Shown in pieces: positions 1,902 to 24,397 of a DNA stretch of 24,712 nucleotides. A program made the translations under genes and the position numbers. The stretch is from IMG/VR virus record IMGVR_UViG_2541047887_000002, one strand, 5' to 3'. Source of the stretch: a virus. Its lineage: Duplodnaviria; Heunggongvirae; Uroviricota; Caudoviricetes. The notes under the pieces are model-generated. The model was not told where the DNA came from, ran no database searches, and was given only the letters and a program-made list of their open reading frames with translations. How positions within the stretch are numbered: position 1 is the stretch's first letter; each line of letters opens with the position of its first letter.

Positions 1902-4900
1902 TCAGGCACTGCATAATCCTCCGTCCCGACGTGATGACTGCATAATTGACACAACCCTGCTGTCGATCAGATCCACCAGTCCCCTGGCTGAGCGCGCATC
2001 TATCTCGCCATTGCTCCCTTGATTCTGAATGCTGATGTGATACACGGGAGAATAAACAAATCCACCGCCACCATTCACATTTCCAATGGCCCTGACCCCA
2101 AGAGAGCCGTCCGCTGCCCGTGTCAGTGGCATGATTGCTTCAGGCCCGGCCTCGCCCATCAGCCCGGCACCTTTCGCAAAAGCAAAATACGTCGGGGTAT
2201 CCACAATGGTGTTACTGTAAGCACTCAGATTTGCCGATGTATAAACACCACCTTTTGCGTTTGCCACTGCACCGGAAAGCCAGTCGCCGACTGTACCAAG
2301 CCATCCTCCGGCACCGGACATGCTTTTGGAAAGTGACTTCAGCCCGTTAACGATGGCAGCGTTCATCAGAATTTTTGAAACTTCCTGGAGAATTGAACTC
2401 CCCCAGTTTCTCCAGTCCACAACATTTCCGGCCAGTGCATCGGAAATATTTGATACCAGCCCGTCCATAGTGGAAACGACAGCATCTGCCGCCTGCGAAG
2501 CATAATCGGTGGCACTGTCTGCCCAGTTCGTCAGTCCCTCCTGGAGTCCGGCATTCCAGTTACTGCGTAAAGCATCAGCCTTTGCATAATAATCCTGCTG
2601 ATCGCTGAGACGCTCTTCCAGATATTTTTCATTCAGAGATTTTTCCTGTTTCCACAGGGCTTCTTCAATTTCTCCGGCCTGATACTGTCTCAGTAGCTCG
2701 TTATTTTTCTGCTCAAACTCCTGCCGGATGCTCCACATTTCCTGAAGTCGTTCACGCATCCGTGAGCCTTCACCATATCCCAGTAACTGAGCCTCATTTG
2801 ATGCTCTGACACTGGCATTACTGTCCGCCAGACTGCTCTCATACGCAGCAAGCTGCTCACGAATCTTTTTCTGGTCGATGAGTGCTGCATTCTGCAAAAG
2901 CGTTTTTTTCTGCGCTTCTGACAGGGTTGATAATTCGCCCTGGCTGACCTGATATTTCATCTTAGCCAGTTCAGTATTCTGCCCTGCCAGTGCTATTTGC
3001 TCTTTTTGCTGTTTAATCAGTTGCTTATAAGTATCTTCTATTTTTTCCGCTTCGGTCTTTTTATGCGCTTTGGGTTTATTTGCCTGGTTATTTCGCCATG
3101 CATCCAGTGAGTTATTTATATAATTCAGTCTTGCTGTCTGATACGCCTCTCCCACAAAGCCGAGATCATCCGCAGCATAACCCAGGCGGGCACGCTCACG
3201 AGCTTCCCCCTTCAGGCGGGACAGAGCCAGTTCGCGCTCGCTGTTATTCAGTGCGGTCTGCTGTTTATCATCCAGGGTTGCCTGTGGTAGCCGTAACGGT
3301 ACATTCACCAGCCCCTGTCGCTGCTGAAGTAATTCATTACCGAGCCCGAGAAGGCGATTAAACTCGGTATGCTGCCCATTCATGATCAACAGGGACTGAT
3401 ACGCTTTGTTTTGTTCCGCTGCCTGTTGACGGATCAACGCCACCCGTCGCTCCTCCAGCCCGGCAAGCACATCCTGAATGGATTGCGCTTTGCCCTGCAT
3501 TTGAGTGAGGCGAGACTGTTCAACTGCCAGTTGATTTGTTGCTTCTGCAAGCCCTTCTGTGACAGTTTTTACCGACGTCATGTGGTTAATCATAAAACCG
3601 TTATCGGTTGTCCAGCCCGGGTTTGCCAGCACATACTGATAGCCAGCAATTTTTTCCTGTAAGGATTTAATCTTACTTTTCTGCTCGTCAATTAACCTGT
3701 TTTGCTCCTTCAGTGCCTGTCGCGTCTTTTCCTCATTATCTGACGCTTCAGGAAGCGACATTGCCGACGTTTTCTGGCGAATTTCGTCGATTGTTGCGGC
3801 ATACTGTCGTGCAGATTCTCTGGCCTGCTCCTGATTCTGATACATCGTGTACCAGGCCGCAGCCCCCAGCATGACGAGTCCCGGCACACCACCAACCAGC
3901 CCCAGCGCGCCACTTAATAAACGACTCCCCACTGACGTAACATTATTCAGCGTTGTCTGTGCCGCTGTTCTGGCCGCAATATTACGGGTAAGTGACACCT
4001 GGGCAGCTGTCAGCTTCGCTTCTGCTGCGGCCTGCCTTTCGGTACCGCGAGCAGCAACAACCGCCTGTTGCGCACGATAAACCGCCGCACGCGCCCTGGC
4101 GGTTGCTATCTGTGTCCCCCGAAGTTGCACTTCAGCAAGAGCCACTTCGTTTCTGGCTGCAGTAATTAATCCGGCAGTTGCAGATCCAGCAGACGACGCC
4201 ATATTGCCAAAATATCGGGCTACCCCGACGGCAACCAGAGCACCAGCAGCGGTTGCCACGGTGTCAATATTGCCTGCAATACCATTCAGCACACCGGAGA
4301 GCGTCTTCGTCACTCCGCTTGCCTCGTTCGCACCACCAACCCAGGCCATAAAGGCGTTTTCAACTTTGGTTGCAGAGGATGAAACCGTATCAGGCATTGC
4401 TGCATATTCATCACGCAACGCCCCAAGCTGACTAATCAGTGCAGGAACAACCTTATCGGCGGTCAGTTTTCCGTTATCCGCCATGGCCTTCAGATCCTTA
4501 CGGGCAACCCCCATTCCCGCAGCCAGCGCACGAATAACACGATCGCCGTTCTCATTCACCGAGTTAAACTCTTCACCGCGCAGCACTCCCTGCGCCAGTG
4601 CCTGACTGAACTGCGTGATCACCGAACTGGCTTCTGCTGTACTGGCACCGGATAATTTCAGGCCCGTGGAGATCGCCTCGGTGACTTTCAGTACCTCCTC
4701 AGAACTGTAACCATACTCCCGCATGGAAGCTGCAGAACGGGCAAAAAGGCTGGCGTTATCAGAAAACGCCGTCCCCGTTCTCTGGCTGATCGCCATTAAT
4801 TCACGCTGTGATGACTGAAAATCATCACTGGACTGTGAGGCCTGCTTCAGACGGGCATTTACTGAATTCCACTCATCGGCGAGAGAAATAAGATGACCGG

Positions 4901-5147
4901 TAGCAAAAGCCCCGGCAAATGCCCCCGCCATGTTCAGTGCCGAAGATTTAGCTGTATTTATCTGATCCGTCACTTCTGCCAGTGCACGCCGCATTTCACG
5001 GGATGCAGCAGCGGACTGTCGGCCTCCGTTCTGCATGGTACGGTAGTAATCCTGCCCCATACGCGAAGCCCGGGAGATCTCTGACTGGAATGACCGGGAA
5101 TTTGCCGAGATTTTAATAATCAGTTCACGTAATGTCGCCACACTCAT
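1902..5147 (-). CDS. H: Tail tape measure protein (1081 aa)
   Basis: Very long ORF with a coiled-coil, Ala/Gln-rich middle and a Gly-rich C-terminal part. It sits between GT and M as in lambda and HK97. GGAGA Shine-Dalgarno upstream of ATG 5145-5147. Confidence 0.9.
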   Translation of the reverse strand: MSVATLRELIIKISANSRSFQSEISRASRMGQDYYRTMQNGGRQSAAASREMRRALAEVTDQINTAKSSALNMAGAFAGAFATGHLISLADEWNSVNARLKQASQSSDDFQSSQRELMAISQRTGTAFSDNASLFARSAASMREYGYSSEEVLKVTEAISTGLKLSGASTAEASSVITQFSQALAQGVLRGEEFNSVNENGDRVIRALAAGMGVARKDLKAMADNGKLTADKVVPALISQLGALRDEYAAMPDTVSSSATKVENAFMAWVGGANEASGVTKTLSGVLNGIAGNIDTVATAAGALVAVGVARYFGNMASSAGSATAGLITAARNEVALAEVQLRGTQIATARARAAVYRAQQAVVAARGTERQAAAEAKLTAAQVSLTRNIAARTAAQTTLNNVTSVGSRLLSGALGLVGGVPGLVMLGAAAWYTMYQNQEQARESARQYAATIDEIRQKTSAMSLPEASDNEEKTRQALKEQNRLIDEQKSKIKSLQEKIAGYQYVLANPGWTTDNGFMINHMTSVKTVTEGLAEATNQLAVEQSRLTQMQGKAQSIQDVLAGLEERRVALIRQQAAEQNKAYQSLLIMNGQHTEFNRLLGLGNELLQQRQGLVNVPLRLPQATLDDKQQTALNNSERELALSRLKGEARERARLGYAADDLGFVGEAYQTARLNYINNSLDAWRNNQANKPKAHKKTEAEKIEDTYKQLIKQQKEQIALAGQNTELAKMKYQVSQGELSTLSEAQKKTLLQNAALIDQKKIREQLAAYESSLADSNASVRASNEAQLLGYGEGSRMRERLQEMWSIRQEFEQKNNELLRQYQAGEIEEALWKQEKSLNEKYLEERLSDQQDYYAKADALRSNWNAGLQEGLTNWADSATDYASQAADAVVSTMDGLVSNISDALAGNVVDWRNWGSSILQEVSKILMNAAIVNGLKSLSKSMSGAGGWLGTVGDWLSGAVANAKGGVYTSANLSAYSNTIVDTPTYFAFAKGAGLMGEAGPEAIMPLTRAADGSLGVRAIGNVNGGGGFVYSPVYHISIQNQGSNGEIDARSARGLVDLIDSRVVSIMQSSRRDGGLCSA

Positions 5148-5157
5148 TCTCCGGACG

Positions 5158-5179
5158 AAAAAAAACCGCCGAAGCGGTT
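5158..5179 (-). terminator. Intrinsic terminator-like hairpin between GT and the tape measure gene
   Basis: Minus strand reads AACCGC-UUCG-GCGGUU followed by a U-tract, immediately upstream of the tape measure Shine-Dalgarno. Confidence 0.4.
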
Positions 5180-5187
5180 ATGTTGAC

Positions 5188-5876
5188 TCACTGAGACACT
5201 ATTAAAAGCGCGTTTTCCAGTCCAGCAAATGGATCTGATACGCCTTCTGTCTGCTCCTTCTCCCACTGAAGAAGCGCATCATTCAGTGGCACTTTGACCC
5301 CCTGCGCACCGTAAACAGCTGAAACAATCTGGGCAGCCCGGATATCAGCCCGTTCGTCCCCCAGCGGGCTGAACCTGTCAAATTCTGCCCACATCATGAT
5401 TTCTGATGCGGACATTTCCCGGCGTAACTCTGACAATGTGCGCCCCATCCTGAGCGCCAGCATCATCAGAAAACGCATCCCCGGAAGCGCTACTTTTTTT
5501 TAACCTCGCCGGCATCACTGATTAGTTCCAGAGACTGCCGAAGAAGCCGCGCATGCACCGGGCCATACACGGCAATCACCTGTTCACGATCATCCTCTGA
5601 AAATACAGGTTGCAGTCCGGTATCACACAGAACATCGATGAACAGTTCAACATCCGCTTCCAGATTTCGGCGGGCGCGCTCCGCAACGGATAACGGTGTC
5701 TCATCATCTTTTGCTTTAACGATCTCCTGCCAGCGCAACCAGGCTTCTGCAGAAGGTTCCCGTAATACAACCGTTGCCCCTTCCCATTCAGGCACATCAA
5801 CAGTTTTATGGCGAAACCCCGACATCGTTGCCAGTGCCAGATTACGGATATTTTTAGTCATCACATCTATCCTCAT
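5188..5876 (-). CDS. GT: Tail assembly chaperone GT, made by a programmed -1 ribosomal frameshift
   Basis: Minus-strand heptamer A AAA AAG (plus 5493-5499) sits just before the G stop TAG. The -1 frame is open from the slip site to the stop at 5188 and encodes ...KKVALPGMRFLMMLALR.... Confidence 0.75.
5490..5876 (-). CDS. G: Tail assembly chaperone G
   Basis: 128-aa acidic protein ending GEVKKK-stop. Its start overlaps the V stop (TAATG). Its 3' end carries the slippery heptamer. Confidence 0.85.
   Translation of the reverse strand: MRIDVMTKNIRNLALATMSGFRHKTVDVPEWEGATVVLREPSAEAWLRWQEIVKAKDDETPLSVAERARRNLEADVELFIDVLCDTGLQPVFSEDDREQVIAVYGPVHARLLRQSLELISDAGEVKKK
5493..5499 (-). promoter_or_regulatory. 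-1 frameshift slippery heptamer A AAA AAG for G to GT
   Basis: Read directly from the sequence. The conserved G/GT frameshift of long-tailed phages is established knowledge. Confidence 0.7.
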
Positions 5877-18258: not shown

Positions 18259-18264
18259 GCATGT

Positions 18265-18294
18265 AAAAAGGCCCCAACACATGTGCGTGGGGCC
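18265..18294 (-). terminator. Minus-strand intrinsic terminator-like hairpin
   Basis: Minus strand reads GGCCCCACGCACAUGUGUUGGGGCC followed by UUUUU. Confidence 0.45.
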
Positions 18295-18494
18295 TGAGAG
18301 TATACATGGTTTCAGTCAACTGCATGGTGCCGGGTGCCTCCCGGTGAATTCAGTACCAGCACCTGAATCCGCGATTATCCCATATACCTACTCGCTGATT
18401 GCCCCTCCGCACAGGGGGATTCACCATGCCAGTTTCTTTTAACAAACTCCCCGCAAAACAGACAACTGTCAACCGTCTGAATTGTGAGACATTT

Positions 18495-18534: not shown

Positions 18535-18611
18535 TGGCGCGTTGTACTGGATTCGAACCAGTGACCGATTGCTTAGAAGGCAATTGCTCTGTCCGGTTGA
18601 GCTAACAACGC
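18535..18611 (-). tRNA. tRNA-Arg (anticodon UCU)
   Basis: Hand-folded cloverleaf: acceptor GCGUUGU/ACAACGC, D-stem GCUC/GAGC, anticodon stem AUUGC/GCAAU with loop CUUCUAA, T-loop UUCGAAU, encoded 3' CCA. Confidence 0.75.
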
Positions 18612-18624
18612 AGGGTACAGATAA

Positions 18625-18701
18625 TGGACCGCCATCGAGGACTCGAACCCCGCGCAACCAGCTTCGAAGGCTGGTGCTCTATCCTGATGAGCTAATGGCG
18701 G
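18625..18701 (-). tRNA. tRNA-Arg (anticodon UCG)
   Basis: Hand-folded cloverleaf: acceptor CCGCCAU/AUGGCGG, D-stem GCUC/GAGC, anticodon stem CCAGC/GCUGG with loop CUUCGAA, T-loop UUCGAGU, encoded CCA. The 5' end is uncertain by 1 nt. Confidence 0.65.
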
Positions 18702-18708
18702 TATGTGA

Positions 18709-18784
18709 TGGTGGCCCTTGCTGGATTTGAACCAGCGACCTGGCGATTATGAGTCGCTCGCTCTCACCTCTGAGCTAAAGGGCC
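18709..18784 (-). tRNA. tRNA with anticodon CAU, most likely tRNA-Ile2 (ileX/ileZ-like); elongator Met not excluded
   Basis: Sequence GGCCCUUUAGCUCAG...GACUCAUAAUCGC...GGUUCAAAUCCAGCAAGGGCCACCA closely resembles E. coli ileX as I recall it. Anticodon loop CUCAUAA. Confidence 0.7.
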
Positions 18785-21543: not shown

Positions 21544-21699
21544 TTACTCCTCAGGTTCGTAGACTGTGAAGACAGCGACCTCCGTCTGGCCGGTTCGGAT
21601 TCGTACCTCGCAGAGGTCTTTCCTCGTTACCAGTGCCGTCACTATGACGGTTAAACAGATGACGATCAGGGCGATTAACATCGCCTTTTGCTGCTTCAT
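21544..21699 (-). CDS. hok: Hok-family type I toxin (HokD/RelF-like, 51 aa)
   Basis: MKQQKAMLIALIVICLTVIVTALVTRKDLCEVRIRTGQTEVAVFTVYEPEE is near-identical to E. coli HokD as I recall it. AAGGAG Shine-Dalgarno upstream. Confidence 0.85.
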   Translation of the reverse strand: MKQQKAMLIALIVICLTVIVTALVTRKDLCEVRIRTGQTEVAVFTVYEPEE

Positions 21700-21756
21700 A
21701 GCCTGCTTCTCCTTGCCTTTCGGCACGTAAGAGGCTAACCTAGATTTGCCGTTCAT
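21544..21756 (-). CDS. mok: Mok-like overlapping reading frame (translational coupler for hok)
   Basis: In-frame upstream extension of 70 aa from ATG 21754-21756, as in hok/mok/sok loci. Confidence 0.4.
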   Translation of the reverse strand: MNGKSRLASYVPKGKEKQAMKQQKAMLIALIVICLTVIVTALVTRKDLCEVRIRTGQTEVAVFTVYEPEE

Positions 21757-21952
21757 AGATTGAGCCTCAGATTAATGTTAAGCGTCTTGCAGGACGCGTA
21801 ATGTTAACTGGGGCTTTTCTCTATCTGCCTTTGGTGTTCATGCCTGAGGCAGATAGCCTCAAGCACCCGCAGCAATTCTACTTAAGTTAGATAAGCTTTT
21901 CTATGGTATTCTCTCAGCGTCCCGTAAATACAGTCTCGGCTCATCATTTTTA

Positions 21953-22349: not shown

Positions 22350-22865
22350 TCACCGTAAAACATCCTCCACGCTTATCAGTCCGTTTCGCTTCAGGTAGTC
22401 CATCGCCTTCTCCGGTAATTTGCAGTCCGGCTTGGCTTTTTTCAGTTGGCTGACCAGTCGTTTAACCCACATTGTTAATTCGCTAACCTGATTGCCGGAA
22501 GCTGGTGGGTTGTCGGCTTTACCCAGAATGACAGCACTGCAGGCCTCTTTGAGTACCCAATCAACAGCATCTTTCCATGCTCCTGTTTCGACTGGTGGAT
22601 TCTCACGCTTTACCTGTTCATAAAAGCGCACGGCTTTAACCAGTCCTTCTGATGTCAGTGGCACAGGCGGGGCAGTGAATAACGCCTGAATTTCATAGCT
22701 CGGCCTGTCGTTGCAATCCTCTTTTGTCGGTACATATTTCCAGTCACCAACCCACGGCTCCCCCTGTGAGTCCGTAATGCCTTTTTTCACGTAGCGATAT
22801 CGCCATGCAACTGGTTTTGCCTGCCCTGCCGTTTCATGTCCTTCCTGATAATTAATCTCGCTCAT
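22350..22865 (-). CDS. Hypothetical phage protein (171 aa)
   Basis: ORF whose start overlaps the stop of the upstream small ORF (ATGA). Confidence 0.6.
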   Translation of the reverse strand: MSEINYQEGHETAGQAKPVAWRYRYVKKGITDSQGEPWVGDWKYVPTKEDCNDRPSYEIQALFTAPPVPLTSEGLVKAVRFYEQVKRENPPVETGAWKDAVDWVLKEACSAVILGKADNPPASGNQVSELTMWVKRLVSQLKKAKPDCKLPEKAMDYLKRNGLISVEDVLR

Positions 22866-23038
22866 TCATCGCCCCACTCATCACAATATGCTTCGACCGG
22901 AGTTTTTCCTGCTTCGTAGTCATAACGCCATGCTTCAGCATCAGCGGCACTTCCACCGCGTAACTCTGCATAATCCATTAACAGTTCATGCCATTCTTCA
23001 AAACTGGCGTTATATTTAGTTGAACCAAAATCAGCCAT
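22862..23038 (-). CDS. Hypothetical small acidic protein (58 aa)
   Basis: Hand-translated MADFGSTKYNASFEEWHELLMDYAELRGGSAADAEAWRYDYEAGKTPVEAYCDEWGDE. Start overlaps the upstream stop (ATGGCTGA); stop overlaps the downstream start. Confidence 0.5.
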   Translation of the reverse strand: MADFGSTKYNASFEEWHELLMDYAELRGGSAADAEAWRYDYEAGKTPVEAYCDEWGDE

Positions 23039-23213
23039 TTTGTTCTTCCTCTTCGTCTTTTATTTCGTGGTATGAGTAATTGCAGTAGTTAAAGAAAATA
23101 TCTTTAGCTTCATCCTGTATTTCATCTGGTGTTGCATCATCATCCACTTCGAATTCATCCTCGAAATCTCCACCGGCTATTCCCGTTTCAATAATTATTT
23201 TGAATTTTCGCAT
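23031..23213 (-). CDS. Hypothetical small, very acidic protein (60 aa)
   Basis: MRKFKIIIETGIAGGDFEDEFEVDDDATPDEIQDEAKDIFFNYCNYSYHEIKDEEEEQNG, about 40 percent Asp/Glu. A hairpin at 23222-23240 lies just upstream. Confidence 0.55.
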   Translation of the reverse strand: MRKFKIIIETGIAGGDFEDEFEVDDDATPDEIQDEAKDIFFNYCNYSYHEIKDEEEEQNG

Positions 23214-23308
23214 TTCACTACCGCCCTTTAGGGCGGCCTCCTGATGTTCTGAGGGTGCAGAAATCCCTCCGGTTAAGGATTAAATTGTATTTACAGCGCT
23301 AAATTTAT

Positions 23309-23665
23309 TTATTCAGTTCTGGATTTTGTCGCCCTGCGTATCCGCGCTTTCGCGTTACGCTCAATCTGAATTAACTTTTCTATATTTTTCCGCCTTTCCT
23401 GTTCCTCCTGGCGCAATAGCCTTACATCATCTGCCAGTCTGGTTTCTCTTTTCGCCACTGAGAGCATCCAGTCAAACGGCTCCACAACTGCACCGCAGAT
23501 TTTACAGCGGACCTGACGCTCTTTTTCGTCAACCCGGACAGAAGCGTGATGGCAGTATGGTCTTTCCGATGGCTCATAAAGAAAATTAACCTGATTACGA
23601 GGGTCATCCTCTTTTACCGGAAATAAAACGATATTGCTTAACTCATCCTCTGGTTTTATTTCCAT
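23309..23665 (-). CDS. Hypothetical zinc-ribbon-like protein (118 aa)
   Basis: Strong Shine-Dalgarno AAGGAGAGGAG. Cys/His cluster CHH...CKIC, then a basic coiled-coil C-terminus. Confidence 0.6.
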   Translation of the reverse strand: MEIKPEDELSNIVLFPVKEDDPRNQVNFLYEPSERPYCHHASVRVDEKERQVRCKICGAVVEPFDWMLSVAKRETRLADDVRLLRQEEQERRKNIEKLIQIERNAKARIRRATKSRTE

Positions 23666-24104
23666 GCTCCTCTCCTTTGATGCGAATGCCAGCGACGCGT
23701 AATGCGTGTTCTAGGTCAATCAGGTAAAGCCAACTGCCATTTTCTTTAGGTATCATGACATGTCGCTCATCTGCATTTATCGGGTGTCCATATCGAAGGT
23801 CGTAGCGAGTCGGTAATTGAACTTCCCGCGCTTCCAGTTCAGCAATACGCTTGCTCCCATCAGAGATAACGCCTTCGTAATACTCACGCTGCTCGTTGAG
23901 TTGTGATTTTGCTTCTTCCAGTCCATCCAGCAAATCAGCGATAATATCCGCTTCCCGATGACGGATGTGACGCTTAAACGCAGCAAGAGCCGCATCACAA
24001 TCCCGTTCAGCATTTGGGCTGTCCGGGATAGCCTGATACCACGCCAGCGTCGACTGATAGTTTTGTGCTGCCTCACGAAGCGCCTCATAGTTAACCTCTC
24101 TCAT
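23643..24104 (-). CDS. Hypothetical nin-region protein (153 aa)
   Basis: ORF overlapping its upstream neighbour by 4 nt. Confidence 0.6.
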   Translation of the reverse strand: MREVNYEALREAAQNYQSTLAWYQAIPDSPNAERDCDAALAAFKRHIRHREADIIADLLDGLEEAKSQLNEQREYYEGVISDGSKRIAELEAREVQLPTRYDLRYGHPINADERHVMIPKENGSWLYLIDLEHALRVAGIRIKGEEHGNKTRG

Positions 24105-24397
24105 TGAGCCACCTCCTGATAAATCACCGCATGCCCCAGTTTCTCCGCCAGTGCCAGCTCTGCCTTAGCGCCCGCTGACCGCTGCCAGCCATTCAGCATG
24201 TAAATCGCATCCACACAACGAATCATTGCCATGCAAATATCCATGTAGTGCGGCTGTGTCAGCCCGTCCGGAAGTACTGCCGGGTTTAAGACGGTATGCC
24301 CTTCCCGTTTCAGTTCCTCTTCCACCTTGTGAAATGCCTCACGGTTGAAATTTTCATATCCCGTCATTGGACCGGCAATATAAACTCTCACCCTCAC
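24101..24397 (-). CDS. DUF4406-like protein (nucleoside 2-deoxyribosyltransferase-like fold)
   Basis: N-terminal VYIAGPMTG motif typical of this small phage family. Overlaps its upstream neighbour by 4 nt. Confidence 0.6.
   Translation of the reverse strand: MRVRVYIAGPMTGYENFNREAFHKVEEELKREGHTVLNPAVLPDGLTQPHYMDICMAMIRCVDAIYMLNGWQRSAGAKAELALAEKLGHAVIYQEVAQ

Follow-up and report, generated by a model that had tools for sequence, protein, structure and literature searches.

Two overlapping genes in the P-to-Q operon of a lambdoid prophage

The window, meaning the whole stretch of 24,712 nucleotides of viral DNA that was analysed, carries on its minus strand two small overlapping genes whose products of 60 and 58 residues are referred to here as p60 and p58 (Table 1). 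Both reading frames were present as the original prediction had described them, and the start/stop overlaps it had reported, ATGGCTGA between p60 and p58 and ATGA from p58 into the gene for a 171-residue protein, were seen in the sequence. A lambdoid prophage with 100% identity to the window is found in E. coli M1/5. The host element is a Rac/Qin-type lambdoid prophage, and the pair lies inside a long operon of overlapping genes that runs from the replication gene P to the antiterminator gene Q. On the minus strand, P is followed by genes for DUF1627, Ren-like/DUF977, DUF4406, Ea22-like and 118-residue zinc-ribbon-like proteins, p60 and p58, and then by genes for the 171-residue protein, an 87-residue protein, hokD, a 90-residue protein, DUF968, RusA and Q, the tRNAs and the lysis genes. 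Judging from the annotation of the identical M1/5 prophage, the earlier placement of the pair in the nin operon was right, as this is the P-to-Q ("nin-equivalent") rightward early operon.

Overlaps also join DUF977 and DUF4406 (4 nt), DUF4406 and the Ea22-like gene (4 nt), the Ea22-like gene and the gene for the 118-residue protein (23 nt), and p58 and the 171-residue protein gene (4 nt). Overlapping starts and stops are the norm along this operon (4 to 23 nt), and there is nothing special to p60 and p58 in this respect.

Table 1. Features of the p60/p58 locus, in positions of the window
Feature	Position	Strand	Remarks
p60, 60-aa acidic protein	23031..23213	minus	DUF7167 / phrog_1997, WP_001224665.1
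p58, 58-aa acidic, aromatic-rich protein	22862..23038	minus	phrog_519, no Pfam family, WP_016245378.1
8-nt overlap ATGGCTGA, p60 stop TGA and p58 start ATG	23031..23038	minus	read from sequence
4-nt overlap ATGA, p58 stop and start of 171-aa gene	22862..22865	minus	read from sequence
GAGG Shine-Dalgarno-like core for p58	23048..23051	minus	9 nt before ATG; putative function
p60 leader: AGGAGG (23242-23237), hairpin CCGCCC-TAAA-GGGCGG (23236-23221), 7 nt to ATG	23214..23242	minus	sequence and RNA fold
171-aa gene, phrog_660, downstream of and coupled to p58	22350..22865	minus	ORF list and PHROGs match
118-aa zinc-ribbon-like protein, phrog_1621, upstream of p60 with a 95-nt gap	23309..23665	minus	ORF list, Pfam, PHROGs

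Concerning the neighbours, the gene for the 171-residue protein follows p58 in 76 of 80 IMG/VR loci with near-identical p60, and is replaced by other genes in phages ArgO145 and vB_EcoS-689R5. The 118-residue protein is often, though not always, encoded upstream of the pair in the IMG/VR loci; it combines a zinc-ribbon-like CxxC/CHH segment with a strongly basic, coiled-coil-like C-terminus, and the start of its gene is the part that overlaps the Ea22-like gene (23643-24104, minus strand). In ArgO145, an additional gene for 70 residues sits between the 118-residue protein gene and p60. Further along the minus strand we noted a hok/sok type I toxin-antitoxin locus, with a Hok-like ORF at 21544-21756, where PGAP places hokD, and an Rfam sok match at 21694-21868 (111.7 bits). 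Between Q and the lysis genes, also on the minus strand, lie a match to the STnc100 sRNA (18259-18458, 140 bits) and three tRNA genes (18538-18784; Arg, Arg and Ile according to PGAP).

Promoter-like and terminator-like sites were found nowhere on the minus strand between 21800 and 24712, and both genes are thus probably expressed from the delayed-early rightward transcript during lytic growth. The Shine-Dalgarno-like core assigned to p58 is located within Glu codons (GAAGAGGAAGAA) of the acidic tail of p60, and p58 would probably be translated both by coupling and from this GAGG. In the leader of p60, a strong AGGAGG precedes the ATG by 23 nt, and a G+C hairpin of 6 bp lies between the two. 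Every E. coli-type locus examined retains this hairpin, usually with GAAA as its loop, and it persists with three different upstream flanks; in 42 loci a C-to-T change still allows a G-U pair. The z-score of the overall fold was only -1.4. Split Shine-Dalgarno arrangements have been described for T4 genes 25 and 38, and the p60 leader could be one, or the hairpin could mark a cassette boundary or act in RNA stability.

In terms of composition, p60 contains 20 Asp and Glu residues out of 60 (33%); its net charge is -15 and its pI 4.05. The protein is acidic as had been claimed, and the accompanying figure of roughly 40 percent Asp/Glu was overstated. The description of p58 as acidic and aromatic-rich agreed with our measurements (Asp and Glu 26%, Phe, Trp and Tyr 17%, net charge -11). 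Acidity is a conserved trait of both families to which these proteins belong, with mean net charges of -12.7 for DUF7167 and -9.2 for the p58 family, and the DUF7167 alignment displays a near-invariant FEV[ED]DDAT motif and an acidic tail. The G+C content of the p60 gene is 36%, while the other five ORFs measured, all from 22350 to 24397, have 45-53%; this difference fits a mosaic or foreign origin of the cassette.

Families, selection and distribution

PGAP annotates p60 as a "DUF7167 family protein" and p58 as a "hypothetical protein". Against Pfam DUF7167 (PF23768), a model of 60 positions with a curated gathering cut-off of 24.4 bits, p60 scored 54.5 bits (E=1.2e-14), with residues 2-53 aligned to model positions 1-60, and on this profile match we judge p60 to be a full-length member of the family. 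It also matched phrog_1997 (E=2.7e-30) and cannot be distinguished from other members, which are stand-alone acidic proteins of about 55-60 residues (51-64 in the full range). At E <= 0.1 Pfam returned nothing else for p60 beyond a weak AnkX_ins match, and nothing at all for p58. On the other hand, p58 matched phrog_519 (E=2.4e-21), as did all 42 diverse homologues aligned with it, but it spans only positions 76-137 of the 143-position profile. NCBIfam and PADLOC gave no matches for either protein, and scans of p60, p58 and their neighbours with Pfam, PHROGs, NCBIfam and PADLOC identified only families of unknown function. The exact sequences of both proteins are present in public collections, that of p60 on at least 1000 contigs. 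As a consequence of these exact matches to entries and families catalogued in RefSeq, Pfam and PHROGs, p60 and p58 are already known as objects.

We then considered the reading that the two frames are non-functional, either chance ORFs or remnants of a larger gene. The partial coverage of the phrog_519 profile, the occurrence of the p58 domain as the C-terminus of a 218-residue NADAR protein in two phages, and the many decayed copies in cryptic prophages would be in line with it. However, the reading frames were free of indels across homologues down to 45% (p60) and 30% (p58) identity, with conservative substitutions, and pairwise comparison of intact full-length copies gave dN/dS values of 0.03 for p60 and 0.13 for p58, indicating strong purifying selection. 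The sequences are also conserved across genera. The alternative frames of the region contain many stops. An exhaustive HMMER search with a p58 profile yielded 74 representatives at 50% identity, nearly all of them stand-alone proteins of 48-70 residues rather than pieces of a known larger gene, and the predicted folds of both proteins were confident. The conserved frames, the dN/dS values and the PGAP annotation of both indicate that these are genuine genes. The reading as chance ORFs or fragments, extremely unlikely in our estimate, is effectively refuted by the stand-alone family members and the purifying selection.

In Escherichia and Shigella lambdoid phages, the pair travels as a small mobile cassette, located in nin-like regions or in the Ea22/exo-xis region. 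A 352-bp cassette was present at >=80% coverage in 1750 of 5426 complete E. coli genomes (~32%), and also in Stx2a-converting phages. Among the IMG/VR loci with near-identical p60, which are close relatives, p58 followed p60 in 80/80 and the 8-nt overlap spacing was kept in 78. The pair with this 8-nt spacing was also found in ArgO145 and vB_EcoS-689R5. In the Stx phage ArgO145 it lies near int, between Ea22-like genes; elsewhere it occupies nin-like regions. Two annotations encountered in ArgO145, "sugar acetyl transferase inhibitor" and "released from the phage upon host infection", were set aside, since they refer to another gene nearby and not to the pair. Cassette copies of about 89% identity occur in degraded Rac-like remnants beside IS elements, with internal stops or frameshifts, which speaks against their having been selected as beneficial to the lysogen. 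Two such decayed copies, in E. coli N96 and ISHS7 (L100 and L101), lie beside an ISEsa1 transposase fragment, and here internal stops or frameshifts interrupt the DUF7167 gene, the downstream gene and a gene for a methyltransferase.

A different picture was obtained at the level of families. In a tblastn survey of 50,697 phage records, DUF7167 was found in 35, comprising 13 E. coli-type, 4 Klebsiella and 18 Enterococcus Herelleviridae-type records (one deposited as "phage ENP2309"), and the p58 family in 197, with Ackermannviridae of Salmonella and Klebsiella in the majority and T5-like, Morganella, Serratia and other phages making up the rest. Both families occurred together only in the ~13 E. 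coli-type records. Taking phages and prophages together, DUF7167 extends over Escherichia, Klebsiella, Citrobacter, Serratia, Yersinia, Pseudomonas and Enterococcus, and phrog_519 over Kuttervirus and Taipeivirus (Ackermannviridae), P2-like, lambdoid and T5-like phages. A profile search of genome contigs with the DUF7167 alignment gave three loci only.

When flanking regions were searched with HMMs, a p58-like ORF was found near DUF7167 in none of the Klebsiella, Serratia, Yersinia, Pseudomonas, Enterococcus and Bacilli MAG loci, and DUF7167 was found near p58 homologues in none of the Enterobacter, Salmonella P2-like, metagenomic phage, Ackermannviridae and T5-like loci. In Enterobacter prophages, a p58 homologue (78% identical) lies directly after an Ea22-like gene without DUF7167; in a metagenomic phage it follows an Rv2179c-like exonuclease gene, and in Ackermannviridae it comes just after the major capsid gene. 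In Salmonella P2-like prophages the p58 homologue overlaps the end of gpA, beside a variable region before the portal gene. At these loci (L107-L109, 3501-3689) the homologue has 62 residues and the overlap is with the 3' end of the gpA replication gene; in one of them (L108) the variable region before the portal gene encodes an nSTAND1/AAA_16 protein (4368-5585) that resembles a defence gene. The host labels of two records, PP818812.1 and OR844942.1, look doubtful: the E. coli lambdoid cassette, with 95% identity, is present in "Actinobacillus phage vB_Apl-pPE4", and a p58-family gene like that of Salmonella Kuttervirus (Ackermannviridae) in "Enterococcus phage Efm 3-10" (UNVERIFIED_ORG).

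These distributions bear on the question of whether p60 and p58 are obligate partners, such as the two subunits of a heterodimeric factor or a toxin-antidote-like pair, which would explain why the genes overlap. Their invariable adjacency with a conserved overlap in the IMG/VR loci, their presence as a unit in the 1750 E. coli genomes and their movement between genomic regions as a unit are all consistent with such a partnership. The supporting loci, however, are close relatives and not independent samples, overlap is the rule along the operon, and in every more distant lineage examined each family was found without the other, the Enterobacter homologue being one example. Nor did Pfam, NCBIfam or PADLOC give a match to any toxin, antitoxin or defence model, while outside Escherichia and Shigella the families are separate, in contrast to what is expected of a toxin-antitoxin module. 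As each family occurs without the other across lineages, the two are not an obligate pair but, from the sequence searches, appear to be distributed independently at the family level, and we regard obligate partnership as unlikely.

Predicted folds and comparison with known small phage proteins

Structures were predicted with AlphaFold2 using input alignments of 46 sequences for p60 and 42 for p58. The p60 model (pLDDT 87.8) consists of a beta-hairpin (strands 2-8 and 17-23) and a helix (29-43), followed towards the C-terminus by an ordered segment and then a disordered acidic tail. The p58 model (pLDDT 87.6) is an acidic three-helix bundle with an aromatic core and helices at 13-27, 34-42 and 47-55. 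Both proteins are thus predicted with confidence to adopt small, compact folds. Neither fold gave a significant match to a solved structure, to Ocr or ArdA, or to a named viral protein. In the Foldseek search against BFVD, p60 matched only uncharacterised phage proteins of about 57 residues (from phAPEC8, Lactococcus phage 949 and a Streptomyces phage), and PDB sequence-profile searches with shallow and deep alignments of p60 and p58 returned nothing significant. Locally, p60 did align with ribosomal protein uL23 at borderline significance (E=0.02-0.08), which we took for a common beta-strand/helix motif and not for homology.

The original prediction had noted that small poly-acidic early phage proteins are typical of DNA-mimic anti-restriction or anti-defence factors and of host-enzyme inhibitors. 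On the reading as DNA mimics, p60, p58 or both would act against restriction in the manner of Ocr, ArdA or Gp5.9 by filling the groove in which type I restriction enzymes, BREX or RecBCD bind DNA. T7 Ocr, ArdA and T7 Gp5.9 are, like p60 and p58, small, strongly acidic, early phage proteins. When set against values for known mimics, the charge densities of our proteins (-15 over 60 residues and -11 over 58) fall within the range, that of p60 being comparable. The acidity is maintained throughout the families, including the DUF7167 motif and acidic tail, and both genes are within an early operon. Ocr and ArdA, however, are elongated, mostly helical dimers whose acidic side chains trace the backbone of B-DNA, whereas the predicted folds of p60 and p58 are compact. 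No homology was detected, neither protein matched the Pfam Ocr family at E <= 0.1, and the confident models gave no significant hit in the search for Ocr/ArdA-like folds that had been proposed. An Ocr/ArdA-type mimic is not supported and in our view quite improbable; the earlier interpretation as a whole is partly supported.

We also compared p60 and p58 with the small proteins of the lambda exo-xis region. Orf60a, Orf61, Orf63, Orf73 and Ea8.5 are early, non-essential proteins of about 60-70 residues, encoded in the same mosaic neighbourhood as Ea22-like genes. They are similarly poorly understood and have been proposed to work through binding to host factors (PMC8614690, PMC10869804); the NMR structure of Orf63 has been reported (PMC10869804). 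This raised the possibility that p60 and p58 are modulators of the lysis-lysogeny decision like these proteins and Ea22. In ArgO145 and in Serratia, Yersinia and Enterobacter prophages, homologues do occupy an exo-xis-type position beside Ea22-like genes and near xis/int, the position in this window being P-to-Q. No relation in sequence or fold to Orf60a, Orf61, Orf63, Orf73 or Ea8.5 was detected, Pfam linking p60 and p58 to no family of these proteins and the copy of the PDB that was searched giving no match to a solved structure. Moreover, both families are also carried by obligately virulent phages, which make no lysogeny decision, among them Ackermannviridae, T5-like phages, Guernseyvirinae and Herelleviridae. 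We therefore consider a role in the lysogeny decision improbable.

Anti-CRISPR proteins are likewise small, acidic and stand-alone products of mobile accessory genes. Among the neighbours of the pair, which are zinc-ribbon-like, Ea22-like and phrog_660 genes, there was no helix-turn-helix (Aca) gene, and the PDB sequence searches gave no match. In kind, p60 and p58 come closest to the small accessory proteins made early from lambdoid exo-xis and nin regions, and to acidic phage inhibitors of small size; they are homologous to none of those tested.

Functional leads and the favoured explanation

The p58 family provided one lead through a fusion. Two T5-like phages, EP_H11 of Escherichia (locus L094, 1506-2162) and IME392 (MH719082.1, 109896-110549), encode a 218-residue protein with a NADAR domain at residues 16-160 (Pfam 7e-27) and a p58-like domain at the C-terminus (~166-218). 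From its sequence, the junction ...MEQMTKKTGSFEEW... appears to have arisen recently, two adjacent genes having been fused by loss of a stop codon. Genes for an Rv2179c-like exonuclease and a DUF4326 protein are neighbours in this cluster. NADAR enzymes remove DarT-type ADP-ribosylation from DNA, and the fusion is by association a hint that p58 may take part in counter-defence. The lead is a weak one, since the fusion is confined to these two phages, which are 95% identical. In a Serratia prophage, the gene adjoining DUF7167 gave a match to Lar (restriction alleviation) below the Pfam cut-off. An apparent linkage of DUF7167 with an "exonuclease" proved inconsistent and was rejected, as the Enterococcus gene is DUF3850/ASCH and only the Guernseyvirinae neighbour is a nuclease, of the PD-(D/E)XK type.

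In the literature searched, DUF7167 was not mentioned, and the sole published statement found on phrog_519 is a machine-learning prediction: proteins of this family from Kuttervirus phages are listed as predicted anti-CRISPRs, flagged by PaCRISPR and AcRanker, with a marginal PaCRISPR score of 0.54 against a threshold of 0.5 and no experiment (PMC9409062). The main text of a functional-screen paper contained nothing relevant to p60 or p58 (PMC12373910). Taken together, the NADAR fusion, the Lar-like neighbour and the anti-CRISPR score point weakly towards counter-defence.

Our analyses showed that p60 and p58 are separate, stand-alone, independently folding acidic mini-proteins. The explanation that we favour, tentatively and as a possibility not quite amounting to a probable one, is that each acts alone during lytic growth as a small protein that binds a host or defence component and inhibits or modulates it. 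Each would probably be a stoichiometric binder or inhibitor, presenting its conserved acidic-aromatic surface to a basic surface of a host or defence protein. A lytic rather than a lysogenic function is suggested because the families occur in virulent phages and because the remnant copies carry stops and frameshifts. The two proteins would then be accessory factors in host takeover or counter-defence, and not enzymes, DNA binders, regulators of lysogeny or genes of benefit to the lysogen. Counting against an early binder, the p58 homologue of Ackermannviridae, located after the major capsid gene, is not obviously in an early position. Pfam, PDB-profile and fold searches found no similarity in sequence or structure to any characterised inhibitor.

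A more far-reaching and rather doubtful proposal is that DUF7167 is the founder of an acidic phage-inhibitor family that crosses phyla and is directed against a conserved bacterial or immune target, that phrog_519 is a second, Enterobacteria-centred counter-defence module capable of fusion with NADAR, and that the cassette is a two-gene anti-defence mini-island. If this were true, such an island would be carried by about one third of sequenced E. coli. As the case stands, p60 and p58 are ordinary conserved phage genes, and nothing marks them as DNA mimics or as a functional pair. The cassette is carried by ~32% of the complete E. coli genomes and occurs in Stx2a-converting phages, and DUF7167 reaches phages of Gram-positive hosts, so that a functional assignment would extend to thousands of genes in one step and might bring new phage inhibitors to light.
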